From Nitrospirota bacterium (lineage in GTDB: Bacteria > Nitrospirota > Thermodesulfovibrionia > UBA6902 > DSMQ01): DNA of 64,000 nt. The stretch spans positions 58,262 through 122,261 of the forward strand of contig JACQXB010000006.1 in the NCBI GenBank assembly GCA_016208965.1, in the 5' to 3' direction. This document shows, one piece after another, positions 5,235 through 55,784 of the stretch; position 1 is the stretch's first letter; each line of letters opens with the position of its first letter. The notes under the pieces are model-generated. The model saw only the letters and a program-made list of their open reading frames with translations. It did no database searches and was not told the DNA's origin. Both the position numbers and the translations under genes were made by a program.

Positions 5235-6101
5235 TTATTCCTTCAGCCTATATATCTCAAACGGCAATTGGCAATAATCAATTCGGTATTCTAAAAGATA
5301 ATCGGTATCGAGATATTTGCTCGGGGCAAAGACAAGGCGCTTTTTGCCTTTGTACGGACCTAAGCTTTTTGCTACGTCAAGTGTGAGTGCGGTTGATTTT
5401 AGATAGTCAATATCAGGCTTGTAGAAAAGATATACTTCATATTCCTTTGATTCGCCAATGAAGTTTTTCTTTTCATTAACTTTTTTAGGATTAAATTCCT
5501 CTCCGGTTGCAGTATAAAAAATATAGCGCGCAAGCTCCATGTAATCACGAAGCTTTTTCCCTTCCAAAATGCTTTCCATCTCAATCGGCTCGCCAAGTTC
5601 AAAATAACTGAAAGTGCCGCCTAATCCTTCAAATCCCCCCTTGCCCCCCTTTTCTAAAGGGGGGATATTTTTAAGTCCCCCTTTGACAAAGGGGGATTGA
5701 GGGGGATTTTTCTTAATCCCCTTTATAACCCGCCTTACCCTTTCAGCAGTAATCTTATCCGCATAATCTTCGCATTCAACAAGAATAAACTTACGATTTC
5801 CGCTGTCTTCTTTATTTAAATCCAAAACTGCATGGGCAGTTGTGCCTGAACCGGCGAAGGAGTAGAGAACAATGGAGTCATTATCCGCAGATAACTTAAG
5901 TATTCTTTTTATCAGAGATGTAGGCTTTGGATTTTCAAATGGTAAATCAACTTCTGAAAAAATCTCTTTCAATCCTCTTCTTGCTTCACTATTACTACCA
6001 ACTTCATTAGCAAACCAAATAGTTAATGGTGTAATTCCTTGTTTAACCTCCAGATGATGATTCTGGACAAAACTTTTACCTTTAAAACTTAAAGTCGCCA
6101 T
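5235..6101 (-). pseudogene. C-terminal portion of a type III (Mod-like) DNA methyltransferase, 5' part missing
   Basis: NPKPTSLIKRIL...VLYSFAGSGTTAHAV gives motif X/I of a beta-class MTase. No DPPY or TRD part upstream. Two C6/G6 palindromic repeats are inserted in-frame. Confidence 0.55.
5631..5710. repeat. C6/G6 palindromic element, two tandem/overlapping copies, inside CDS
   Basis: aaatcccccc ttgcccccct tttctaaagg ggggatattt ... ctttgacaaagggggattgagggggatttt. Confidence 0.8.
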
Positions 6102-6220: not shown

Positions 6221-7039
6221 TTACCTCCCTCTTGCAAGCCTCTCAATTAGATAAGGCGGCAGTCCTGCCTCCCGCATCTTCTTTTGTATAGATACTATAT
6301 CATAAGGTACCCTCTTTACTTCTATGGAATTTTGGGTTAGCAGGGCGTAGGCTGCCTCTGAATTGCCGTCCCTTGGCTGGCCAACGCTGCCAACATTGAC
6401 TATATATCTGCAACCCTCTTTAATATCAGCGTAATCCTTATAAACAGAAATATCACCTTCAGGATTCATTTCTGCTATAAAGGGATAGTGACTATGCCCT
6501 ACAAAGCATATTCTTTCAGTAAAGAATTGAAAGTTTATATATGCATCCCATGTGTTCAGGATATAGTGCCATTGCTCAGGCTCTTTTGGTGTTGAATGGA
6601 CAAGATAGACATCCCCAAATCCCCCCTGCCCCCCTTTGCTAAAGGGGGGTAAGGGGGGATTTTCTTTATTGCCCTTTGTATCTCCTTGTGACACAAATGT
6701 TTCATCTGTAATTTTCAAGCTCTTGAAAATTGGAAGGCTCCTAAGAAACTCCTTATTTCTATCACTCAGAATCTCTGTTGTCCACTCTATTACCTCTTTG
6801 GCATAGGGATTAAAATACTCAATATCGGTTATGCCAATAACTGCATGGTCATGATTGCCAGCGAGGAATATTTGTGTTTCTTTTCTTAGGATTTTTATAC
6901 ATTCGTTTGGGTTAGGACCATACCCGACGATATCCCCTAAAAACCATACTGCATCAGGATTTTCTTTTTTTATTGTAATAAGGACAGACTGTAAGGCTTC
7001 AAGGTTGGCATGGACATCAGAGATAATGGCATAACGCAT
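6221..7039 (-). CDS. Calcineurin-like metallophosphoesterase (YfcE-like)
   Basis: DVHAN, GDIVGYGP and GNHD motifs. Carries an in-frame C6/G6 palindrome translated NPPLPPFSKGGQGGFG. Confidence 0.8.
   Translation of the reverse strand: MRYAIISDVHANLEALQSVLITIKKENPDAVWFLGDIVGYGPNPNECIKILRKETQIFLAGNHDHAVIGITDIEYFNPYAKEVIEWTTEILSDRNKEFLRSLPIFKSLKITDETFVSQGDTKGNKENPPLPPFSKGGQGGFGDVYLVHSTPKEPEQWHYILNTWDAYINFQFFTERICFVGHSHYPFIAEMNPEGDISVYKDYADIKEGCRYIVNVGSVGQPRDGNSEAAYALLTQNSIEVKRVPYDIVSIQKKMREAGLPPYLIERLARGR
6617..6663. repeat. C6/G6 palindromic element inside the phosphoesterase CDS
   Basis: aaatcccccctgcccccctttgctaaaggggggtaaggggggattt. Confidence 0.85.
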
Positions 7040-9369: not shown

Positions 9370-9515
9370 TAAATTAAATCCAAAATCCTAAATTCTAATT
9401 TCTAAACAATATCAAAATTCTAATCTTAAAATGACTAAAACTTGTTTTGAATTTTGGATTTTTGCAATTTGATATTGTTTGGGATTTAGAATTTTGAGTT
9501 TAGGATTTTATGTAG
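9370..9515. repeat. AT-rich long imperfect inverted repeat in the ribE-ribBA spacer
   Basis: aaatccaaaatcctaaattctaatttctaaacaatatcaaa pairs with ttgatattgtttgggatttagaattttgagtttaggattt. Confidence 0.6.
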
Positions 9516-15703: not shown

Positions 15704-16157
15704 GTGTAAGGAATAAATACAGGAGAATAAATACATACTGTATTTATTTAAGAAATATGGGATGTGTGTGTGTATTTTTATTAAGTTTTCGTACCAAAAG
15801 GAATTTTTGAAATTCCGGCAGTAACTCCAGCCTGTCTTTGGACACTTTCCCCATATTTTACCAACTTGCCTTTTTACCTATATTACCACAAAATACAAAG
15901 TATAGGGCTTATTTTAAAATGATTTTTTCTTTATCTAAAACGTTAAATATGATATATTGTCTTTAATGAGTTCTTGAAATAGGAAGTTGGTATATTAATC
16001 GTTATGCCCATATTGAAAGAAGGCAGTGAAAGAAGGCAGTGACCCAAGGCCTTCAGAACAAGTATGAACTTTACTGCAAGAAAATAACTAAAATTATAAT
16101 TACTAAAATTAACTAAACCTTGATATTATTAATTATGATAAGTTATTATATTTAATA

Positions 16158-28419: not shown

Positions 28420-29994
28420 ATGAGGTCTTCTATAAAAACCGTAGATTTTCTAATAATTGGTGGAGGTGTTGCAGGGCTAAGGGCAGCAATAGAGGTTGCA
28501 CCAGTTGGGAGTGTCATTGTCCTTACAAAGGACATGCCTGCAGAGAGCAGCACTGGATATGCACAGGGAGGGATTGCAGTTGCACTTAGTGATGAAGACG
28601 AGGTAGGCATTCATTATGAAGACACTATAAATGCAGGAGATGGATTGTGTAATAAGGATGCTGTCAAGGTATTAGTTGAAGAGGGGCCAGAACTAATACT
28701 TGAGCTTATCTCATGGGGTGCTGAGTTTGATAAAGAGGGTAGTAAACTCGCATTTACCCAAGAGGCAGCGCATTCCCGCAGAAGAATCCTACATGCCCAG
28801 GGAGACTCCACAGGAAGGGAACTTGAACGTGTACTTATTAATAAAGTTCGCACTTTTAAAAGTGTTTCAAGGTATGATTTTGCATTTACTGTTGATTTAA
28901 TTATAAAAGACGATAGATGCGCAGGAGCCATTATTTTAAGAGATAGAGAAGCCATCCATATTTATGCAAAGGCTACTATACTTGCCACAGGAGGCGCTGG
29001 ACAGCTTTATTCAAGGACAACAAACCCTGCTGTCACAACAGGTGATGGAATGGCAATTGCTTACAGAGCAGGTGCGGTGCTTCAGGATATGGAGTTTATA
29101 CAATTCCATCCAACAACGCTTTATTCTCCTTCTGCTCCTCAGTTTCTCATTAGTGAGGCAATGAGGGGAGAGGGTGCAATATTAAAAAATATCCATGGAG
29201 AGAGGTTTATGCCAGGGTATCATACCCTTGCTGAACTTGCACCGAGGGATATAGTATCAAGGGCGATTATCTCTGAGATGGTAAGAACAAATGCAAAACA
29301 TGTTTACTTAGACCTTACGCATCTTGATAAGAATTTTGTTAAAGGACGATTTCCGAGGATCTATTCAACATGCCTTCAGTTTGACATAGATATAACAGAA
29401 GACCTTATCCCTGTCTCTCCTGCAGCGCATTATGTAATGGGAGGAGTTAAAACCAATCTAAACGGTGAGACAGACATAAAAGGTCTTTTTGCAACAGGCG
29501 AAGTTGCATGCACAGGGGTTCATGGTGCAAACCGTCTTGCCTCAAACAGCCTCCTTGAAGGACTTGTATATGGGGCAAGGGCAGGGAGGTCAGCAGGGGA
29601 GTATGTAAATAAAAGTCAGAAGTCAGAAGTCAGAAGTCAGAGGTTAAAAACTGCTTCTTCCATTTTGCCTTCATTTGATACAGTGAAGATAAAAAGTACC
29701 TTGAGACGTTTGATGTGGGAGAAGGTTGGCATTATAAGATGCAAGGAGTCTTTAAATGCAGCAAGGGAATGGTTAAGAAAATGGGATTCTATCCTTAAGG
29801 CGGATTTCACAAGCAGAGAAAGGCTTGAGCTAAAAAATATGCTAACAGTTGCTAATTTAATTGTGGACTCAGCCCTCCTTAGAGAAGGAAGCATTGGAGC
29901 CCATTATCGTTCTGACTTTAAAGAAAGAGGAGAAAACTGGCAGAGGCATGTTATATCTCAGAAAGAAAAAGGCTTACAGCGGGCTGATGCGTAG
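28420..29994 (+). CDS. nadB: L-aspartate oxidase
   Basis: FAD-binding LIIGGGVAGL and HYxMGG. Contains an in-frame (aagtcag)x4 repeat at 29619-29648. Confidence 0.9.
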   Translation: MRSSIKTVDFLIIGGGVAGLRAAIEVAPVGSVIVLTKDMPAESSTGYAQGGIAVALSDEDEVGIHYEDTINAGDGLCNKDAVKVLVEEGPELILELISWGAEFDKEGSKLAFTQEAAHSRRRILHAQGDSTGRELERVLINKVRTFKSVSRYDFAFTVDLIIKDDRCAGAIILRDREAIHIYAKATILATGGAGQLYSRTTNPAVTTGDGMAIAYRAGAVLQDMEFIQFHPTTLYSPSAPQFLISEAMRGEGAILKNIHGERFMPGYHTLAELAPRDIVSRAIISEMVRTNAKHVYLDLTHLDKNFVKGRFPRIYSTCLQFDIDITEDLIPVSPAAHYVMGGVKTNLNGETDIKGLFATGEVACTGVHGANRLASNSLLEGLVYGARAGRSAGEYVNKSQKSEVRSQRLKTASSILPSFDTVKIKSTLRRLMWEKVGIIRCKESLNAAREWLRKWDSILKADFTSRERLELKNMLTVANLIVDSALLREGSIGAHYRSDFKERGENWQRHVISQKEKGLQRADA

Positions 29995-31411
29995 GGTAAA
30001 GATAATCTGCACAATAGGTCCTTCAAGCAACTCAAAGAGGGTAATTCATGAGTTGATAAAAGCAGGCATGGATTCTGCGCGGTTAAACTTTTCACATGGA
30101 ACTCGCGAAGAACATCAAAGGGTAATTAAAACAATAAGAGAAGGCTCTAAAAGATACAACTCACCTGTAAGTATAATTCAGGATTTGGCTGGGCCTAAAA
30201 TCAGGGTTGGTTCAATTAAAGACGGACATGTAATGCTCTCAAAAGGCTCGGTATTATCCCTTACTACGAAAGATATTGAGGGCAGTAGTGAACAACTATC
30301 AATATCATATCCTTATCTTATTAAAGATACAAAAGTTGGAGACAGAATCCTTTTAGACGATGGTTTGATCCAGCTAAAGATTATAGAAAAGCGAAAGGCT
30401 CGGTTAATTACAAAAATTATTGAAGGTGGACTTTTAAGGGAGAAAAAGGGAGTAAATCTCCCGGGTGTAAAAATCTCTGCCCCTGCATTTACTGAAAAAG
30501 ACAAAAAAGATGCTGAATTTGGAATAAAAATGGGGGTTGATTATATAGCAATGTCTTTTGTTCGCTCAAAAGAAGATATACTTAATCTTAAAAGCTGGTT
30601 AAAAAGACACGGGGCTGATACTCCTGTGATTGCAAAGATTGAGAAACCTGAGGCAGTAAAAAACATCAACGGGATACTTGAGCTTTCAGATGGGATTATG
30701 GTTGCAAGGGGTGACCTGGGCGTTGAAATTCCCCCTGAAGAGGTTCCTTTAATCCAGAAGAGACTTATATATGAGGCAAACAGGTCAATGAAACCTGTAA
30801 TAACCGCAACCCAGATGCTTGAATCCATGACAGAACACCTTAGACCAACAAGGGCAGAGGCAACAGATGTTGCCAATGCAGTCATTGATGGAACAGATGC
30901 CCTTATGCTTTCAGGGGAGACAGCAGTGGGTAAGTATCCAGTTGAGACATTGAAAATGATGGATAGGATTATTAATTTTACAGAGACAGGGTATTCAATA
31001 ACTACGGAAAGTTCACAGCCCACGGCTCGCCATTCACGGTTTACAAATTTTGCGCAGGCAATTGCGGAGTCTGCATGTATATCAGCCCATGACATAAAGG
31101 CAAAAGTAATTGTGGCTTTCACAAGAACAGGTTTTACAGCGCTCCTTGCATCAAAACAGAGACCTCAGGTTCCAATTATTGCTTTTACAACTACTAAGGA
31201 TGTTCAGAGAAGGATGAATCTTTACTGGGGGATAAAGCCGTTGATTATGGGGTTTCCTCACAGCACAGATGAGATGATATATAAATCAGAAAAGGCATTA
31301 CTCAGGAATGGTATTGTTAAAAAAGGAGATTCAATTGTAATAATAGCAACCTCTCATTTTGCATTAGGAGAGAAGACCAATATTATGAAACTTCACAGGA
31401 TTGGATGTTAG
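29987..31411 (+). CDS. pyk: Pyruvate kinase
   Basis: MRRVKIICTIGPSS. ATG overlaps the nadB stop by 8 bp. Confidence 0.9.
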   Translation: MRRVKIICTIGPSSNSKRVIHELIKAGMDSARLNFSHGTREEHQRVIKTIREGSKRYNSPVSIIQDLAGPKIRVGSIKDGHVMLSKGSVLSLTTKDIEGSSEQLSISYPYLIKDTKVGDRILLDDGLIQLKIIEKRKARLITKIIEGGLLREKKGVNLPGVKISAPAFTEKDKKDAEFGIKMGVDYIAMSFVRSKEDILNLKSWLKRHGADTPVIAKIEKPEAVKNINGILELSDGIMVARGDLGVEIPPEEVPLIQKRLIYEANRSMKPVITATQMLESMTEHLRPTRAEATDVANAVIDGTDALMLSGETAVGKYPVETLKMMDRIINFTETGYSITTESSQPTARHSRFTNFAQAIAESACISAHDIKAKVIVAFTRTGFTALLASKQRPQVPIIAFTTTKDVQRRMNLYWGIKPLIMGFPHSTDEMIYKSEKALLRNGIVKKGDSIVIIATSHFALGEKTNIMKLHRIGC

Positions 31412-31438
31412 GTTTATGAAATACAAAAACCAGATAAC
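31332..31438. repeat. Direct repeat copy 1 (3' end of pyk, ~105 bp)
   Basis: caattgtaataatagcaacctctcattttgcattaggag...ggtttatgaaatacaaaaaccagataac recurs at 32012-32118 with 2 mismatches. Confidence 0.9.
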
Positions 31439-31560
31439 GTTTTCACAAGCGATGTTTGCAATCTGGTGGGTGTGTTGACTCTTGCAAGACACATGACAGA
31501 TTGCAAATGTTTCATAAAACGCTTGTGTTGTGTTATCTGCCCGTGCGGGCAGAAAATACA

Positions 31561-31824
31561 CTATTGTTTATAAACATCTCCTCTGCCTCCGATTGATTTT
31601 ATTTCAACAGTCTTATCTTTGACATTAACCTCATAGACTATCCTGAAAGCGCCCATTTCATAACGGTATTTACCTTCAAGTTCACCATGTAATCTTTTGA
31701 TATGCGGACCAGAAAGCGGTTCTCTGCTGAGATTATCAATGCAGTTATTTAGTCTTCGTTTGGTGTCTTTATCTTGTTTTTTGTAATACTTTTCTGCTTC
31801 GTGAGAGATAAGGACTTCATACAT
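31561..31824 (-). CDS. RelE/ParE-family toxin
   Basis: MYEVLISHEAEKYYKK...GKYRYEMGAFRIVYEV...VEIKSIGGRGDVYKQ. No intact antitoxin identified upstream. Confidence 0.65.
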   Translation of the reverse strand: MYEVLISHEAEKYYKKQDKDTKRRLNNCIDNLSREPLSGPHIKRLHGELEGKYRYEMGAFRIVYEVNVKDKTVEIKSIGGRGDVYKQ

Positions 31825-32011
31825 CTTCTCTAACCTCTGCCCACCTTTTAACCCTTCCAGCCTTAAAGTCCTCATCTCCTCTCATTATACTATTCAGAAA
31901 ATCTTTGTCTTTGAGAATTTCCTTTGTCGCCCGCTGAGGCGGACAAGCACTCTGTTATCTGCCGTTGCGGGCATTTTTATTTAAATGGTCGCTGTCCCTA
32001 TTTATTTTATA

Positions 32012-32118
32012 CAATTGTAATAATAGCAACCTCTCATTTTGCATTAGGAGGGAAGACCAATATTATGAAACTTCACAGGATTGGATGTTAGGTTTATGAA
32101 ATACAAAAACCAGATAAC
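32012..32118. repeat. Direct repeat copy 2 (duplicate of the pyk 3' end)
   Basis: See copy 1. Together they flank a 573-bp insert. Confidence 0.9.
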
Positions 32119-32430
32119 TTGTTCATAATAGCACCGAGTGCCATTTTGCTCCAGAATATTGGGATGCTATCAGCACTTGGTGCGGATATTTTCATTCTGG
32201 CAGAATTGCCAGATTCCCTTTTCCTGTCAAAATATCTCACTCACCACCTCCTTTCGCTAACTCAATGGTATGCTCCTGTATGTATCTCTGTTTGCCTTAA
32301 CGATATAATTAATTATTGCTTAAACCCCTTATGGTGTCAAGTTTTTCCTTGTACAGAACAATATAGTTTCTATCACATCTGTCCAAAATAAATTTTCAAA
32401 AAATAAAAAAATGATACTGTTACTAATACT

Positions 32431-32540
32431 TCCCCCCTTTGTAAAAGGGGGGTGAGGGGGGATTTTATGGATAAATGCTTCTGCTTAGAGTTTTTTATTT
32501 ATAAAAATCTCCCCTCCCCCTCTTTGCTAAAGAGGGGAAC
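32431..32540. repeat. Two degenerate C6/G6 palindromic elements, intergenic
   Basis: cttccccccttt gtaaaa ggggggtgaggggggatttt and aaaatctcccctccccctctttgctaaagaggggaac. Confidence 0.7.
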
Positions 32541-32703
32541 ATAAAAAAAAGGTGCAACCTGATTTTAAAAATATTGATTTACCCGTCTAAAACCCTTATG
32601 TTATAAGGGTAAGTTTTGTGGTTTTAAATTATCTTGGACAGCAGTGAGTTTCTATTAATTAAAAAAATGTTAAAATAGACTTCTGAAAAGGAGGTAGCTC
32701 GCC

Positions 32704-33921
32704 ATGAATATGCAGGAATTAATCAAGCCTCTTATACAAAAAAACAACACAAAGATTGTGCTTATTGTTCTTGATGGCGTTGGGGGGCTCCCTAATGCCT
32801 CGGGGAAAACAGAGCTTGAGTCAGCAAATATACCGAATCTTAATGCACTGGCAAGAGGGTCTGCATGCGGATTGCATGTCCCAATTGCCTATGGTATTAC
32901 ACCGGGCAGTGGTCCCGGACACCTTGGAGTTTTTGGATATGACCCAATAGAGAATCAAATAGGAAGGGGAATTTTGGAAGTCCTTGGTCTTGGACTTGAG
33001 GTTAAAAGGACAGATGTTGCTGTACGGTGCAATTATGCCACTATCAAGGGCGGAATTATCATAGACAGAAGGGCAGGAAGGATACCAACCGAGCAGAATA
33101 AAATATTGACAGATAGACTGCAAAAAGAGATGAGAAGAATTGATGAAGCAGAACTCATATTTGCCCCTGGAATGGAGCACAGGTTCGCTGTCTTAATGAA
33201 ATTCCCTAAGCCGCTTGAACCTGATACCGCGATGATAACCGATACAGACCTGCAAAAAGAAGGGGTCACTCCCATTTATCCAGCACCACTTTCAAAAAAT
33301 GCAGAGAAAGTATCGAAGATTGTTGAAAAAGTGATAAATAAGTCTCAGGAGCTCCTAAAAAATGAGGAAAAGGCAAACTATATTTTAATGAGGGGATTTT
33401 CAATCATGCCGCATCTAACACCATTTCAAGAGGCATTTGGATTAAATGCCCTTGCTATTGCCGCATATCCTATGTATAGAGGGTTTGCGAGGCTTGTAGA
33501 AATGGATACACCTTCTCTAAAAAAAGATGTTAAGGAAAAGATTGAGTTTTTAAAACAGAAATACAATGACTATGACTTTTTCTTTTTGCATGTGAAAAAA
33601 ATTGATTCCTATGGTGAAGACGGTAATTTTGAGGGTAAGGTTGCAAGAATAGAGGAGTTTGATAAACTGTTGCCAGAGATACTTAAACTAAAACCTGATG
33701 TGCTTATTATAACTGGCGACCATTCAACGCCATCGTTAATGCGAAGCCATAGCTGGCATCCTGTGCCTGTGCTTCTTAAGTCTCCTTATGTCCTTGGTGG
33801 TCTTTGTAATGGGTTCTCAGAAAGGGAGTGTATAAAAGGGGAACTCGGGATTTTTCCTACAATAAATCTTATACCTTTAGCCCTCGCAAATGCTGGAAGA
33901 CTCAAAAAGTTCGGAGCATGA
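32704..33921 (+). CDS. apgM: 2,3-bisphosphoglycerate-independent phosphoglycerate mutase, archaeal type
   Basis: 405 aa, metalloenzyme-superfamily ApgM-like sequence. Confidence 0.8.
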   Translation: MNMQELIKPLIQKNNTKIVLIVLDGVGGLPNASGKTELESANIPNLNALARGSACGLHVPIAYGITPGSGPGHLGVFGYDPIENQIGRGILEVLGLGLEVKRTDVAVRCNYATIKGGIIIDRRAGRIPTEQNKILTDRLQKEMRRIDEAELIFAPGMEHRFAVLMKFPKPLEPDTAMITDTDLQKEGVTPIYPAPLSKNAEKVSKIVEKVINKSQELLKNEEKANYILMRGFSIMPHLTPFQEAFGLNALAIAAYPMYRGFARLVEMDTPSLKKDVKEKIEFLKQKYNDYDFFFLHVKKIDSYGEDGNFEGKVARIEEFDKLLPEILKLKPDVLIITGDHSTPSLMRSHSWHPVPVLLKSPYVLGGLCNGFSERECIKGELGIFPTINLIPLALANAGRLKKFGA

Positions 33922-33936
33922 AAAACACCGCGTAAT

Positions 33937-34668
33937 ATGATTGGAAAATTACTGAGAATCCTCTTTCCAGAGCCCTGCCCTATTTGCAACAACCCACCCA
34001 AGAACCATAGGATTGCACCTATATGTCCTGTCTGCTGGGAAGGGATTTCTCCATATACTGGCCCTATATGTCAGGTATGCGGTAAACCCCTTGTTTCTCA
34101 AGAGTCTATAATCTGTGAAGAATGTATTATTGATAAACCATATTTTAAGATAGCGCGGGGTTTTGGGCTATACGATGGAGCTCTAAAAAAAGCTATTAAT
34201 CTCCTAAAGTATCAAGGGATAAAAAGACTTTCAAAACCTTTATGTGATATAATTTTCAGGATAAACCCCGCACCAGAGAAATCTTTGTGCGGGGTAAAAA
34301 TCCCCGATGTGGACTTAATACTGCCCGTTCCTCTTCACAAAAAGAGACTCATGCAGAGGGAGTTTAATCAATCAGCCCTCTTAGCTAATGGTATAGGGAA
34401 AAGGCTTGGAGTTAAGGTAGCTATTGACTGTCTTGCAAGAACAAAAAATACAATACCGCAAGTAGGTCTTAGTGGAAAGGAAAGAAGACAAAATCTGAAA
34501 GGTGCATTTGAGGTAAGGAACAAAAATCTAATTCATGGTAAAACCATTATGCTCATAGATGATGTATTCACCACAGGCGCAACAGTGAGGGAATGTTCTA
34601 AGGTCTTAAAAAAGTCAGGCGCAGGAGATATCTATGTTATTACCCTTGCAGATAGCGGGGGAGATTAG
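33937..34668 (+). CDS. comF: ComF-family protein (zinc-finger + phosphoribosyltransferase domain)
   Basis: N-terminal CPICNN...CPVCW and PRTase motif MLIDDVFTTGAT. Confidence 0.75.
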   Translation: MIGKLLRILFPEPCPICNNPPKNHRIAPICPVCWEGISPYTGPICQVCGKPLVSQESIICEECIIDKPYFKIARGFGLYDGALKKAINLLKYQGIKRLSKPLCDIIFRINPAPEKSLCGVKIPDVDLILPVPLHKKRLMQREFNQSALLANGIGKRLGVKVAIDCLARTKNTIPQVGLSGKERRQNLKGAFEVRNKNLIHGKTIMLIDDVFTTGATVRECSKVLKKSGAGDIYVITLADSGGD

Positions 34669-34765
34669 TGAATAAATGCAAAATTCAATCCCGACGCTTC
34701 GGGACAAAATGCAAAATTAATGAGGCACTATACAACAATAGTGCTTCATTAAGGGAATAGAGGTT

Positions 34766-35605
34766 ATGTTTAAAATCTTATATAAACAAACGCTCGCTCC
34801 AAAGATTGACATGATGGTGATAAGTGCCCCCTACATTGCAAGACATGCAAAGGCTGGAAACTTTGTTGTAATAAGGCTTAATAAAAAAGGAGAAAGGATT
34901 CCGCTCACCATTGCTGATGCTGATGTGGGAAATGGAACTATTACATTACTCTTTCAGAAAGTAGGTAAGACTACAGAAGCACTGGGGATGTTAAAACGAG
35001 GTGGTTTTATCAGGGATATTGCAGGACCACTTGGACATCCTACGCCAATAACGAAGTATGGGGATTGCGTCCTTGTAGCAGGAGGTGTCGGGGGCGCTAC
35101 ACTCTATCCTATTATCAAGGCTTTGAAGGAAACAGGTAATAATATAACATTCATTATGGGAGCTCGTTCAAAGGAATATTTGATTTGGGAGGAGAAATTT
35201 AAAAAAATTGCAGACGAGTGTATTGTTACCACAGATGATGGAAGTTATGGCAGGAAAGGATTGGTTACTGATGTACTGAAAGAGGTCATCCAGAATAAAC
35301 CTATTGCAATTGTAGTTGCTGTTGGACCTGTAAGGATGATGAAAGCAGTTTCTGAGCTTACAAAACCTTATGGGATAAAAACTATTGTGAGCCTAAATCC
35401 ATTAATGGTAGAAGGAACAGGCATGTGTGGCGCTTGCAGGGTAAATATCGCTGGGAAGACAATGTTTGCTTGTATTGATGGTCCTGAATTTGATGGGCAT
35501 GAGGTGGATTTTCAGGTGCTTGAAAATCGTCTTGGGTTTTATAAAGAAGAAGAAGAGAAGGCTTATAAGTTGTTTTTGAATAAACCACGTAAAGGCAAGC
35601 CTTAA
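34766..35605 (+). CDS. NfnA/SudB-like FAD/NAD-binding electron-transfer subunit (PyrK-like)
   Basis: 279 aa with C-terminal [2Fe-2S] motif CGACRV...C. Confidence 0.75.
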   Translation: MFKILYKQTLAPKIDMMVISAPYIARHAKAGNFVVIRLNKKGERIPLTIADADVGNGTITLLFQKVGKTTEALGMLKRGGFIRDIAGPLGHPTPITKYGDCVLVAGGVGGATLYPIIKALKETGNNITFIMGARSKEYLIWEEKFKKIADECIVTTDDGSYGRKGLVTDVLKEVIQNKPIAIVVAVGPVRMMKAVSELTKPYGIKTIVSLNPLMVEGTGMCGACRVNIAGKTMFACIDGPEFDGHEVDFQVLENRLGFYKEEEEKAYKLFLNKPRKGKP

Positions 35606-45046: not shown

Positions 45047-46565
45047 TGGCACCTGCCTTGAATTCCTTTAGCAAATAAGGGGAACAAAAACCCACAATTA
45101 CAGTATGTCTTGATGCCTTTACTGTTTTTTTAAGTATAGTTTTTAATTTCCTGCTTAATCCACTCCTTCCTTTCCATGCAGAGATTTTTGAAAAGATGGC
45201 GATGATTAAAAATCCCCCTTTGCCCCCCTTTGTCAAAGGGGGGATGGGGGGATTTTTAGATGAAATGGTTTTATTGTCAACATAATAGGTCTCTATGTTT
45301 TTGTATCTCGCTTTAAGTGTATTAATAAATGGCTTGCCTGATTTGTTGTTGTCGTCATCAATGATGAGGACAGCTATTTGGTCTGAAAATGCTTCCTTTT
45401 TGTCATTGCGAGCCCCGAAGTTTCGGGGCGTGGCAATCTTTTTGTTTTTAATACCCTTTTGAGATTGCTTCGTCACTTCGTTCCTCGCAATGACATTTTT
45501 TACGATGCTTATTGATTTTTTTGTCAGCTTATAAGCAAAATCCCAGTTTGCCTTTGTTCCGATATCTTGCATCCTGTATCGTGCATCTTGTATCACTAAT
45601 TCTTTTTTCCCTTTTATAATTTTTTCGTAAGACTCATCAACCCTCTTTTCTATCTCATTCCATCTTGAGGAAAAATAATCTATTATTCTTTCAGGTTCGC
45701 TTGGATGAAGGATTATGTCTGCGCCTGCATTTAAAGCCATTAAACATGCCTTCTCCTCAGGATATCTAATTGCCTGCATATTCATTGCATCTGTGACTAC
45801 AAGTCCTTTAAATTTCATTTCAGTTTTTAGTAATCCTTTAATGGTCTTCTCCGAGAGGCTTGATGGAAATCTTGAATCAATAGCAGGCACTTTGAGGTGA
45901 CCTACCATTACCATCTTGACTCCTGACTTTATTGCCTCTTTAAAGGGATGTAGTTCAACTTTTTCAAGCCTTTTCATATCTGCCTTTACTATTGGTAGCC
46001 TTATATGAGAGTCCACGCTCGTATCTCCATGCCCTGGAAAATGTTTTGCACAAGCAATAATCCTGTGTTTCTGAAAACCTTTTATAAATTCATTCCCAAA
46101 CCATGAGACCTTTTCAGGATTCTCACCAAATGCCCTTACAGAGATTATAGGATTTTGGGGGTTTGTGTTTATATCAAGTACAGGTGCAAATATTACATTT
46201 ATTCCACATGCCTTTGCCTCTTGAGCGATAATGTTTATGGAGTTCCTTAACAGATTAATATCATCTTTATTTTTTGGGTTAATCGCCTGTCCAATAGCCA
46301 TAGCTGGAGGGAACAATGTGCCGCCTTCTATCTGCTGTCCAAGTCCTCGTTCAAGGTCAGAGGTTATAAAAAGAGGGATTTCACTTAGTTTCTGCAATTT
46401 CTTAATTGCCTCGCTTACATCTTTTAGCTTCCCGCCAAAAACAATAAAACCACCAATGCCTTTCTTAACAAGCGATTGGTAATATTGAAACTTTTTATGG
46501 ACATCTTTCCCATCAAGCCTTGCAATTATAAGCTGTGCAATTTTTTTATTTTTATCCATGGGCAT
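44979..46565 (-). CDS. Glycoside hydrolase family 3, NagZ-like beta-N-acetylhexosaminidase with a C-terminal extension
   Basis: KHFPGHGDTSVDSH motif. The C-terminal ~150 aa contains two in-frame repeat elements at 45208-45256 and 45395-45492. Start Met chosen at MPMDK. Confidence 0.7.
   Translation of the reverse strand: MPMDKNKKIAQLIIARLDGKDVHKKFQYYQSLVKKGIGGFIVFGGKLKDVSEAIKKLQKLSEIPLFITSDLERGLGQQIEGGTLFPPAMAIGQAINPKNKDDINLLRNSINIIAQEAKACGINVIFAPVLDINTNPQNPIISVRAFGENPEKVSWFGNEFIKGFQKHRIIACAKHFPGHGDTSVDSHIRLPIVKADMKRLEKVELHPFKEAIKSGVKMVMVGHLKVPAIDSRFPSSLSEKTIKGLLKTEMKFKGLVVTDAMNMQAIRYPEEKACLMALNAGADIILHPSEPERIIDYFSSRWNEIEKRVDESYEKIIKGKKELVIQDARYRMQDIGTKANWDFAYKLTKKSISIVKNVIARNEVTKQSQKGIKNKKIATPRNFGARNDKKEAFSDQIAVLIIDDDNNKSGKPFINTLKARYKNIETYYVDNKTISSKNPPIPPLTKGGKGGFLIIAIFSKISAWKGRSGLSRKLKTILKKTVKASRHTVIVGFCSPYLLKEFKAGAIIEAYSDSKQVQEIVGEILSSS
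45208..45256. repeat. C6/G6 palindromic element inside the GH3 CDS
   Basis: aaaaatccccctttgcccccctttgtcaaaggggggatggggggatttt translates NPPIPPLTKGGKGGF. Confidence 0.85.
45395..45492. repeat. GTCATTGC...GCAATGAC palindromic element inside the GH3 CDS
   Basis: gtcattgcgagccccgaagtttcggggcgtggcaatc...gattgcttcgtcacttcgttcctcgcaatgaca. Confidence 0.7.
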
Positions 46566-51401: not shown

Positions 51402-51543
51402 AACTTATTCCTTCAAACCCTAAATTCTAATATCTAAATTCTAAACAAATTCTAATGTTCAAATAACCAAATTCAAAACAGTTTTGAATATTTGAATTTA
51501 GAATTTTGATATTGTTTAGTATTTAGGATTTCGGATTTAGAGT

Positions 51544-52926: not shown

Positions 52927-53073
52927 AAAATCCCCCTCCATCCCCCTTTTTCAAAGGTATGAACCAGAGCGGTTCATACCAAAGGGGGAAATTTTCCCCC
53001 CTATTAAGAGGGGATAAAGGGGTGTATTCCCCTCTTTAGCAAAGAGGGGTGAGGGGAGATTTTATAAATAGAG
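52927..53073. repeat. Composite cluster of 2-3 C6/G6 palindromic elements with an inner hairpin
   Basis: aaaatccccctccatcccccttttt...aaagggggaaattttcccccc...ctttagcaaagaggggtgaggggagatttt. Confidence 0.7.
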
Positions 53074-54629: not shown

Positions 54630-55784
54630 ATGAAGAGAAAAATTACAATAGGCACACGAAGTAGCAAGCTTGCCTTATGGCAGGCTGAATGGGTTAAATC
54701 TGAACTCAAAAAGCTTAACTCTGATTTAGAGATTGAACTTAAAAAGATTAAGACTACAGGTGATAAAATTCTTGATGTCCCTCTTGCAAAAATTGGCGGC
54801 AAAGGGCTTTTTGTAAAGGAGATAGAAGAAGCACTTTTAAGAAGAGAGGCTGACTTAGCAGTCCACAGCATGAAGGATGTGCCAACTGATTTACCTCAAG
54901 GGCTTCATATATCCGCTATATGTAAGAGGGAGAATCCGAGAGATGCCTTAATAGTAAGTCAAAAGTCAAATCCCCCCTTACCCCCCTTTGCTAAAGGGGG
55001 GCGTGGGGGGATTTTAAACTCGTCACTCGTTACTCGTCACTCGTTACTATACGAGCTTCCACATGGTGCAACAATTGGCACGAGCAGTCTTAGAAGAATA
55101 TGCCAGATATTAAGCATACAGCCTAATTTTAAAATTACACAGCTTCGCGGAAATCTTGATACAAGGATAAGAAAACTTGATGAAGGGAAGTTTGACGCCA
55201 TTATTGTTGCAGTTGCGGGTGTAAAAAGGCTGGGTTTATCTCATAGAATTACTGAAACTCTTGAACCTGATATATGTCTGCCCGCTATAGGTCAAGGGGC
55301 TGTTGGTATAGAATGCAGAACCGATGATAAATTTATAAATAGCATCCTTTCACCTTTAAATCACGTTGAAACATCTGTATGTGTGAAGGCAGAAAGGGCA
55401 TTCCTTAAGAGGTTAGAGGGCGGCTGTCAGGTGCCAATTGCAGCGTATGCGAGAATTGAGAAGATGCAAGATTCAGGATACAGGATTCAGGATACAGGAT
55501 TCAAGATACAGGATAATCATGCATCGTGCATCATGCATCATGCATCCGACATCGTCACTCGTCAATCATTACTATATATTGATATTGACGGTCTTATCGG
55601 CAGCGTCTCCGGAGACAGACTCATAAAAGGTCACATAGAGGGAAATCCTCAGGATGCAGAAAAACTTGGGGTCAACCTCGCGGAGGATTTACTCTCAAGA
55701 GGTGGAGAAAAAATACTTGCAGAGATTTATCCAGTTAGATCACTATCATCCGCTAACCATCTGAAACCCATTGATAATACATGA
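54630..55784 (+). CDS. hemC: Porphobilinogen deaminase with three in-frame repeat-derived insertions
   Basis: IGTRSSKLALWQA and the cofactor region are present. Insertions: a C6/G6 palindrome at 54968-55015, an (actcgtc/actcgtt)x4 run at 55015-55050, and 7-mer runs (caggata/caggatt)x6 plus (catgcat)x4 at 55462-55550. Confidence 0.85.
   Translation: MKRKITIGTRSSKLALWQAEWVKSELKKLNSDLEIELKKIKTTGDKILDVPLAKIGGKGLFVKEIEEALLRREADLAVHSMKDVPTDLPQGLHISAICKRENPRDALIVSQKSNPPLPPFAKGGRGGILNSSLVTRHSLLYELPHGATIGTSSLRRICQILSIQPNFKITQLRGNLDTRIRKLDEGKFDAIIVAVAGVKRLGLSHRITETLEPDICLPAIGQGAVGIECRTDDKFINSILSPLNHVETSVCVKAERAFLKRLEGGCQVPIAAYARIEKMQDSGYRIQDTGFKIQDNHASCIMHHASDIVTRQSLLYIDIDGLIGSVSGDRLIKGHIEGNPQDAEKLGVNLAEDLLSRGGEKILAEIYPVRSLSSANHLKPIDNT

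Follow-up and report, generated by a model that had tools for sequence, protein, structure and literature searches.

A toxin gene beside pyk in a Nitrospirota genome and the probable remnant of an integron-like gene-capture platform

The window analysed here, 64,000 nucleotides of contig JACQXB010000006.1 (positions 58,262 to 122,261, forward strand) from the Nitrospirota assembly GCA_016208965.1, carries behind the pyruvate kinase gene pyk a small toxin gene between two direct repeats of the pyk 3' end. A preliminary description had taken this arrangement for the site-specific integration of a minimal toxin-antitoxin (TA) element. Site-specific recombination, the toxin and a degraded antitoxin were retained in our analysis, but not the self-contained element: a docking site and the remnant of a recombinase gene lie just outside the coordinates of the supposed complete unit, at 32119-32266. 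Positions 31430-32266 are probably the remnant of an integron-like gene-capture platform standing tail to tail with pyk, in which an occupied and an empty allele of one docking point have been joined. The identity of toxin, antitoxin remnant, attC, half attC, attI and recombinase remnant is well supported; how the duplication arose we infer from their arrangement. The following features are referred to throughout, with crossover points and junctions marked by a slash.

29987-31411, plus strand: pyk (pyruvate kinase), intact, 474 aa; PF00224 405.8 bits, PF02887 116.5 bits
31332-31438: repeat copy A1, last 80 nt of pyk and 27 nt of downstream flank
31430-31551, minus strand: putative attC-type site of the toxin cassette; 5' extension TGCCCGCACGGGC, R'' AGATAAC (31538 to 31532), L'' CACAAGCG; in its 3' part a long loop, L' CGCTTGTG, spacer AAAAC and R' GTTATCT (31438 to 31432)
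31561-31824, minus strand: RelE/ParE-family toxin gene, apparently intact, 87 aa from MYEV
31817-31930, minus strand: 3' remnant of the antitoxin gene, codons 42-78 of 78 and stop, overlapping the toxin start by 4 nt
31931-31943, minus strand: 13-nt filler TCCGCCTCAGCGG, deletion junction between half attC and antitoxin remnant
31944-31973, minus strand: 5' half of a second putative attC, TGCCCGCAACGGC, R'' AGATAAC and L'' AGAGTGCTTG, ending after L''
31974-32011, minus strand: segment E, …AATAGGGACAGCGACCATTTAAATAAAAA, a recurrent cassette 3' end
32012-32118: repeat copy A2, pseudo-copy of the pyk 3' end with flank, ancestral Gly codon kept
32119-32236, minus strand: attI-like site X, beginning right after the recombinase stop codon and ending …ATGAACAA/G at the A2 junction
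32237-32266, minus strand: remnant of a tyrosine recombinase gene, last 9 codons (IELAKGGGE) and stop

A1 and A2 are direct repeats of 107 nt with a single mismatch (31371 A vs 32051 G); the repeat itself had been recognised before, with a length of about 105 bp and two mismatches that both needed correction. The 573 bp placed between the copies were confirmed as 31439-32011; besides the ParE/RelE toxin gene they contain an inverted repeat and a 21-mer that occurs twice. On the minus strand A1 starts, at the attC side, with …GTGAAAAC/GTTATCTGGTTTTTG, and A2, at the attI side, with …ATGAACAA/GTTATCTGGTTTTTG; in short form the two junctions read …GAAAAC/GTTATCTGG… and …GAACAA/GTTATCTGG…. The G of GTT is the first identical position of both copies and lies 1 nt away from the G/TT crossover regarded as canonical, and the last 9 nt of A1, CCAGATAAC, are the complement of the attC R' core. 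Since the repeat edges are attC and attI cores, attC/A-pyk can be read as the "occupied" and attI/A-pyk as the "empty" form of one docking point. The insertion site had first been seen in the pyk end; the crossover points are instead the G/TT cores at the right edge of both copies, whereas a parallel case at the pyk gene of another genome (L187, discussed below) speaks for the earlier placement. The codon with the mismatch encodes Glu in A1 and Gly in A2, and Gly is present in 81 of 91 Pyk homologues, a difference compatible with every proposed route of duplication. The Pyk protein of the window is identical to P0121 from a Nitrospirota metagenome-assembled genome (MAG). Look-ups by exact sequence of this Pyk, of P0121 and of the toxin with three alternative starts retrieved no recorded entry.

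The imperfect inverted repeat of the preliminary description is real. The region 31425-31556 folds at -29 to -32 kcal/mol (z = -5.3 and -5.9 for the two strands), and none of 200 shuffles was as good. By its layout the inverted repeat appears to be the attC-type site of the cassette, the 21-mers being the conserved 5' ends of two such sites. Exactly two copies of the 21-mer are present in the 64 kb, at 31531-31551 and 31953-31973 (0.01 expected by chance); their presence had been reported correctly, with coordinates 4-5 nt off. A generic attC detector rated the site in the window with R 7/7 and L 8/9. Compared with the strict RYYYAAC/GTTRRRY consensus, its boxes R'' AGATAAC and R' GTTATCT deviate at two positions, and many members of the attC family carry GTTAGGC or GTTAACT cores. 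The half attC is identical to the 5' half of the attC upstream of the same TA cassette in the related loci L002, L007 and L011. Segment E precedes attC sites in several unrelated loci (L002, L018, L044, L047, L052, L080, L104).

The conservation of these sites as structures was evident from a motif scan that covered one genome per species. The motif occurred in 100 stretches of DNA from Nitrospirota, Desulfobacterota, Planctomycetota, Nitrospinota, Chloroflexota, Bacteroidota, Firmicutes and some archaeal MAGs. The plan 3' of the motif begins with a variable arm and its complement, joined by a loop, and continues with a 5-nt spacer and a GTTA[AGT]NN core, the median length being 68 nt. At least 8 of 9 arm positions were complementary in 31 of 104 motif sites, as against 0 of 104 shuffles. 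In an alignment of 19 sites, compensatory double changes affected 11 of the 12 pairs of the L helix, with a covariation score of 0.243 vs 0.112 +/- 0.013 in shuffles (none of 500 reached 0.243) and at most 0.115 in slid controls; the AAC/GTT base of the R box was invariant. These 19 sites were pre-selected for complementarity, therefore the comparison of 31/104 with 0/104 is the unbiased test. The spacers of the attC are asymmetric, about 1 nt on the 5' and 5 nt on the 3' side, and the L helix has no regular bulge. The covariance model R1 matched the attC of the window with an E value of about 0.002, driven by the 5' box, and the half attC with about 0.005; it recognised only the conserved 5' box and detected no motif sites in the 64 kb beyond these two. 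Regions downstream of the toxin in L002 and L003 fold no better than shuffles (z = -1.4 and -0.4), so that folding energy alone is a poor test.

Several candidate features were rejected. An outer stem TGCCCGCA/TGCGGGCA as a general part of the sites was paired in only 32% of cells, about as expected by chance; it is real only where the next cassette begins with TTATCTGC…TGCGGGCA (L011, L059, L123). The generic attC matches at 9401-9504, 16082-16148 and 51440-51520 of the window are false positives in AT-rich palindromic repeats. The first and the last of these three are homologous intergenic repeats (…AAATTCAAAACA.GTTTT…AGAATTTTGATATTGTTTAG), attC mimics that are unrelated to the sites described here. 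Hairpin ends of the IS200/IS605 type do not account for the 21-mer, the sequence of which is conserved across copies while the pairing is not; the architecture of R and L boxes near a tyrosine recombinase is present instead.

The preliminary description had suggested a search for the same cassette elsewhere, and complete TA cassettes with the flanking motif were indeed found. In L002 and L003/L004 a complete TA pair lies between two copies of TGCCCGCAnCnnCAGATAAC (reverse complement of the 21-mer); the intact pair consists of a 78-aa antitoxin overlapping the 87-aa toxin. L003 is an array of three small units with the motif between them. The R' end of the attC upstream of TA cassettes reads TGTTATAAT, TGTTATGAT or TGTTATCAT (L002:4745-4800, L003:960-1000 and 1650-1680, L007:5600-5625, L011:6210-6225). 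According to these ends, the GTTAT core doubles as the extended -10 promoter box of the TA operon. Recurrent cassette tails were also observed directly before attC sites, about 10-15 nt upstream of the motif, in the types AATAGGGACAGCGACCATTT, GAGGGACACTTCCCAT, GGGTCAAACCTTCAAAATTCATTTT and GGGTCTTGAAATATGACTTTT; they are present in the window (31974-32000, minus strand), in L002, L018, L044, L047, L052, L066 and L080, and in others.

On the other side of A2, X aligns over its full length with the stretch from stop codon to first junction of L011 and L108, with 68% identity and long identical blocks, and it also aligns with L062, L091, L007 and L003. The adjacent recombinase remnant is homologous at the DNA level (TTGAGTTAGCGAAAGGAGGTG) to the C-termini …LDTLELAKGGDQ of L108 and …LDTLELAKGGEE of L062, each followed by the stop codon. 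As X matches the stop-to-junction stretch of intact platforms and has a recombinase 3' end beside it, it is regarded as an attI-type docking site. The window would then represent a platform with a deleted recombinase gene. In L011 an intact recombinase gene is followed by a 125-nt attI ending …AACGA/GTTATCTGCTCATTGCGGGC and by an array in which three or more additional attC sites are present. The layout of L011 is repeated in L108 and L112, both with full-length recombinases, and the first cassette junction of L108 reads …GAACAA/GTTGACC. The recombinase comparison comprised 80 metagenomic relatives with 50-81% identity, 18 of which were inspected in detail. Two or three short palindromic boxes and then …AGTT(A/G), about 95-150 nt past the stop codon, were seen in 16 of these 18 loci. 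A strict generic attC detector revealed ten sites downstream of the recombinase genes on the same strand; the controls gave one site each for the opposite strand, upstream on the same strand and upstream on the opposite strand, and none in shuffles. None of the 80 metagenomic recombinase genes had the exact attC motif downstream; the motif thus identifies one subfamily, and the generic detector is required.

Two open reading frames (ORFs) in this region, of 48 aa (32094-32240) and 90 aa (32119-32391), had no match in Pfam or NCBIfam, and the former was rejected as a gene, being attI DNA conserved at the nucleotide level. Rfam yielded nothing above threshold in the window at 29000-35000 or in L062, L091 and L108. 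The decay of the recombinase gene is not confined to the window: in L007 and L062, too, a site of this kind is preceded by a remnant of the gene with an internal deletion. These two deletions (L007:5093-5290, L062:2713-2878) are independent and alike, with an N-terminal …SFPYDP fused in frame to a …(LGH)…IYTHV…SPLDTL tail and the attI kept. In L123 (2140-2470) a stop-rich insertion of about 330 nt splits the gene between HTLRHSFA and THLLESG, while attI and the cassette start GTTATCTGCTCAGTGCGGGCA are kept; the longer recombinase match at this locus is this insertion and not an IntI-type domain. A further observation concerns the first unit past the attI junction, which is common to L062:2985-3235, L091:2236-1940 (minus strand) and L108:2630-2860. 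It comprises about 250-300 nt, is free of ORFs and highly self-complementary (GTTGACCAAAATG…CATTTTGGTCAAC GGCTGGCGG … CACCCGCCAGCC), belongs to no Rfam family and could be a non-coding cassette. A repeat with G/C-tract hairpins (…CCCCCCTTTGTAAAAGGGGGG… / …CCCCTCTTTGCTAAAGAGGGG…) was observed in the window at 32430-32540, 5631-5695, 6617-6663, 45209-45244, 52927-53065 and 54968-55016 and also in L002, L011, L034, L038, L082 and L102, with only chance miRNA-like Rfam matches. It adjoins the 5' end of the recombinase gene in L011, and in the window it occupies the place expected for that gene.

The toxin assignment of the preliminary description was borne out by a match to PF05016 (ParE_toxin) of 34.3 bits against a cut-off of 23 (E = 3.5e-8). 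Among 282 homologues the best is 97% identical. The protein looks intact, because it deviates at none of the positions conserved in at least 90% of 120 homologues. The lack of an intact antitoxin, described before as a possible degradation, was likewise confirmed, with just 37 of 78 codons left; the peptide MPATADNRVLVRLSGRQRKFSKTKIF that had been named as its trace is a spurious ORF of 26 aa (31894-31974) in a different frame. The genuine remnant lies on the minus strand in the frame directly upstream of the toxin, its translation ending …ATKEILKDKDFLNSIMRGDEDFKAGRVKRWAEVREDV before the stop codon. Residues 42-78 (31930-31820, minus strand) are 97% identical over 37 aa to the intact gene of L001 (tblastn). 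Loci of close toxin homologues always carry a 78-aa gene at this position, intact in L001, L002 and L003, and the N-terminal part of the intact antitoxin is weakly DUF2281-like. Absent from the window are the N-terminal 41 codons with the start codon context, together with the ribosome-binding site and the native promoter. A type II TA pair has its cognate, co-transcribed antitoxin directly upstream, and of this only codons 42-78 of 78 remain here. No second antitoxin copy was found in the 64-kb window, and the 45-aa antitoxin fragment had no Pfam or NCBIfam match. In the alignment with L001-L005, homology is lost at the 13-nt filler, where about 188 nt are absent relative to L002. The half attC ends after L'' and is fused via the filler to antitoxin codon 42, thus about 190 nt were deleted. 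Promoter-like sites facing the toxin on the cassette strand are present at 32340 to 32312 (11 of 12 matches) and 31911 to 31884 (10 of 12), both being consensus matches only, and the toxin could be expressed from them. Presumably it is either silent or neutralised in trans; an expressed toxin would need neutralising by a paralogous antitoxin encoded elsewhere.

The proposed history of the locus starts from its order on the minus strand, which would be that of a platform: the last nine recombinase codons, a complete attI-like site, a 680-bp cassette-like unit and the chromosome with the pyk 3' end. The unit would extend from the attI G/TT core (32118) to the attC G/TT core (31438) and contain A2, E, the half attC, the 5'-truncated antitoxin gene, the intact toxin gene and the complete attC. 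The locus may thereby present the occupied and the empty allele head to tail. Two routes could lead to it. In the first, an aberrant excision from an occupied allele would have produced a 680-bp circle of A and cassette, which re-entered an empty allele; the crossover may have taken place at G/TT (attI x attC), inside the 107-bp homology by RecA or at the left edge of the homology, all with the same product. In the second, cassette and A would first have been duplicated in tandem, and the attI-proximal copy would then have been lost by an ordinary attI x attC excision. Sequence alone does not separate the routes, and each would need one illegitimate join, 32011/32012. In keeping with this history, no flank duplication of the kind was found in L002, L007 and L011. 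The upstream attC lost its 3' half in a separate deletion of about 190 nt, which also took away the TA promoter and 41 antitoxin codons. Having lost its recombinase, the platform is presumably dead in cis; a related recombinase acting in trans could still move the unit by excision or reshuffling, given an intact attI and one intact attC.

A number of points weigh against this reconstruction. No recombinase gene is present within the 64-kb window, where tblastn detected nothing beyond the 9-codon remnant. The recombinases of related platforms lack the IntI-specific domain, and the recombination of attC with attI is read from the layout of the loci rather than from a characterised enzyme. The loop of the attC in the window is much longer than in the family used for the covariation test, the 19 sites of that test had been chosen for arm complementarity, and covariance model R1 paired the 5' box of the window attC with a wrong 3' partner. 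The junction 32011/32012, the outer edge of E, is the only one without a recognisable recombination site and is left without explanation under either route. The duplication is known here from an assembled sequence only. Finally, the locus L187 has the same anatomy without attC or attI, which suggests a cause tied to pyk or a general route of circle integration.

L187 (L187:5236-6843) stems from another Nitrospirota MAG (GCA_038918575.1, JBCKZZ010000002.1), the Pyk of which is 68% identical to that of the window. A direct repeat of about 200 nt, 98% identical (4 mismatches in 208 nt), covers the pyk 3' end and about 15 nt of flank. It encloses an insert of 1.19 kb with an 81-aa gene and a retropepsin-like 211-aa gene, and three tRNA genes follow. 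The insert is unlike that of the window, encodes no integrase and is free of attC and attI motifs. Pyk loci without an insert, which the preliminary description had proposed to look for, are represented by four other pyk lineages. The pyk-end duplication was thus present in two of six pyk lineages examined, a sample that is small and was chosen because of the finding in the window. No duplication of the 3' end of any other housekeeping gene was found in 1.1 Mb of loci, in which the other long repeats are cassette or contig ends. Targeting is not proved by two of six lineages; a preference for the pyk 3' end, or a recurrent integration of circles beside a strongly conserved gene, stays a live rival.

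One alternative, which we regard as doubtful, though worth weighing, is that of a small integrase-less element with a pyk 3' end of its own as attP, inserted by an integrase encoded elsewhere or lost, which displaced the native gene end to the far side of the insert. The integron-type parts would be mere cargo, and tRNA-targeting islands and cis-mobilisable elements (CIMEs) would be the comparison. L187 independently shows the pyk-end repeat, there around an unrelated two-gene module without integrase, and in both cases the repeat spans from inside pyk to just past the stop codon, the classic pattern of a restored target. The consensus Gly in the displaced A2 and the Glu in the gene-proximal A1 fit this idea, as does the absence of other housekeeping-gene 3'-end duplications from the 1.1 Mb. 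However, neither insert contains or adjoins an integrase gene. On the left the repeats end at different points of pyk (80 vs about 187 nt before the stop codon), and no shared core site is evident. The exact match of the right edge to attC and attI cores, to the nucleotide, would have to be a coincidence, and the few pyk loci were picked on account of the window. Like CIMEs, and like islands equipped with a copy of the target gene's 3' end, the locus has direct repeats including a conserved gene 3' end, a small module, an intact target gene and no integrase inside, and this recurs in L187. Unlike in CIMEs, no cognate integrase or shared core site was identified; the left edges differ, the inserts are unrelated, and in the window the repeat edge coincides with the attC/attI crossover points.

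An origin independent of any recombinase was also considered, which we think unlikely, although tandem duplications and single-crossover integrations are common events. Either a fragment of the occupied allele of a sibling strain would have been taken up, circularised by end-joining and integrated by a RecA single crossover in the 107-bp homology (Campbell-type), or a spontaneous tandem duplication would later have been trimmed. Integron-type sites would then account for the two alleles, not for the duplication event. L187, with the same anatomy and no attC or attI sites, agrees with such an origin. On the other hand it requires a 680-bp circle and recombination over just 107 bp, and it leaves both known cases at pyk unexplained. 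Its product is formally identical to that of the platform history and the two are inseparable by sequence; it is treated here as a variant of the last step.

An assembly artefact, in which two strains, or a free circular cassette and an empty site, were merged into a tandem by the assembler, is very improbable. The source is a MAG, repeats of about 100 nt are near the k-mer sizes of assemblers, and occupied and empty alleles are expected to co-exist in cassette systems. Against this, the repeat copies differ by a substitution and the junction 32011/32012 is unique sequence that must occur in reads, both of which make an artefact unlikely, and the anatomy recurs in the independently assembled L187, where the repeat has 4 mismatches in 208 nt. 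A DDE transposon, an insertion sequence or a miniature inverted-repeat transposable element was rejected, as no terminal inverted repeats were found at the insert ends 31439/32011 and the duplication measures 107 nt, not 2-14 bp.

With the integron-like platform as the preferred interpretation, the question of its class is raised. The model for integron integrases, TIGR02249, scored 219-226 bits against a cut-off of 265, in two stretches, with the recombinases of the L011, L112 and L108 platforms. Residues ~180/206-242 of VchIntIA (2a3v), the IntI-specific domain, have no counterpart in these proteins. XerA aligns with the platform recombinase end to end in one stretch, and the closeness to XerA equals that to IntI. 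The platform recombinase has in addition an extra N-terminal domain (VSFPYDP…RWHP…KxWSFP). Its family comprises at least 5,877 proteins at E values of 1e-60 or lower, with the public names "site-specific tyrosine recombinase/integron integrase" or "XerD". An integron is expected to encode an IntI with the additional domain near patch III, and this domain is absent from the intact related platforms; the locus is therefore called integron-like and not a canonical integron. The putative attI beside the recombinase gene with its GTT insertion point is represented by 32119-32236, and the R''-L''…L'-R' inverted repeat of attC is conserved as a structure.

Sedentary chromosomal integrons, such as the Vibrio superintegron with its relBE, parDE and higBA cassettes, and clusters of attC sites lacking integron integrases (CALINs) were compared with the locus. 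As in chromosomal integrons, cassettes are bounded by attC sites with the boxes R''(…AAC)/L''/L'/R'(GTT…), a GTTRRRY-type core and a G/TT junction (PMC4889954, PMC9668308). TA pairs with their own promoter occur as cassettes, and the attI lies beside a tyrosine recombinase gene. In contrast to chromosomal integrons, the recombinase is without the IntI-specific additional domain and with the extra N-terminal one, the window holds only one complete and one half attC, and the attC sites of this subfamily are extended 5' of R'' by 13 conserved nt, with spacers of 1 nt vs 5 nt. The loss of an integrase leaves orphan arrays, as in CALINs (PMC4889954, PMC9668308). CALINs have at least two attC sites and no integrase nearby; the window has one complete and one half attC and no tyrosine recombinase gene. 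Because a recombinase remnant and an attI are present, the locus is nearer to a decayed complete platform than to a CALIN. Co-orientation of recombinase and cassettes, an attI just 3' of the gene and a GTT insertion point are shared with the "inverted-integrase" integrons of Treponema and other Spirochaetota and with archaeal integrons, in which attI sites lie directly downstream of intI (PMC4889954, PMC9668308). Those IntIs, however, are defined by the IntI-specific profile, which the family described here fails (219-226 vs 265 bits). The Xer-dependent dif modules of Acinetobacter plasmids (pdif modules) are likewise small, often TA-encoding modules bounded by sites for Xer-type tyrosine recombinases. 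They differ in their 28-nt double-stranded dif-like sites from the 60-110-nt folded palindromes with covarying arms, and a dedicated adjacent recombinase with attI distinguishes the platforms. Integrons, including decayed integrase-less forms, have been documented in these phyla and in Archaea (PMC4889954, PMC9668308). Our literature search retrieved no paper on an integron-like platform whose recombinase lacks the insertion, and the supplements of PMC9668308 list no attC of this subfamily.

Outside of the platform, tandem AGAAGTC(A) repeats were observed in the window at 29614-29642, where they encode …KSQKSEVRSQR… near the 3' end of an L-aspartate oxidase-like gene (28420-29994).

The apparent TA element in pyk would in our interpretation be a fossil, in which a docking site, a cassette, a recombination site and the scars of three rearrangements are preserved. 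The intact toxin has outlasted both its antitoxin and the platform. The second pyk-end duplication, in L187, bears on the choice of target sites. Tentatively, the locus can be taken one step further as the footprint of an integron-like system not described as such, run by an insertion-less recombinase, with array-flanking DNA also held in the attI-proximal unit. If true, the IntI-specific domain, thought to be essential for the recognition of folded attC, would be lacking in a very large co-oriented recombinase family, with the attI directly downstream of the recombinase and canonical attC sites distributed among bacterial phyla and reaching archaeal MAGs. This would account for some of the many "integrase-less" attC clusters. 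The window would also offer a natural case in which a platform has made a cassette out of neighbouring chromosomal DNA, a matter relevant to the origin of cassettes. The loci compared suggest that a recombinase clade left out of the standard integron definitions, for lack of an IntI-specific domain, serves the attC-type cassette arrays of Nitrospirota, Desulfobacterota, Planctomycetota and other anaerobic lineages. If confirmed, this would bear on the recognition of folded attC, on the origin of integrons from Xer-like recombinases and on attC clusters without a detectable IntI.

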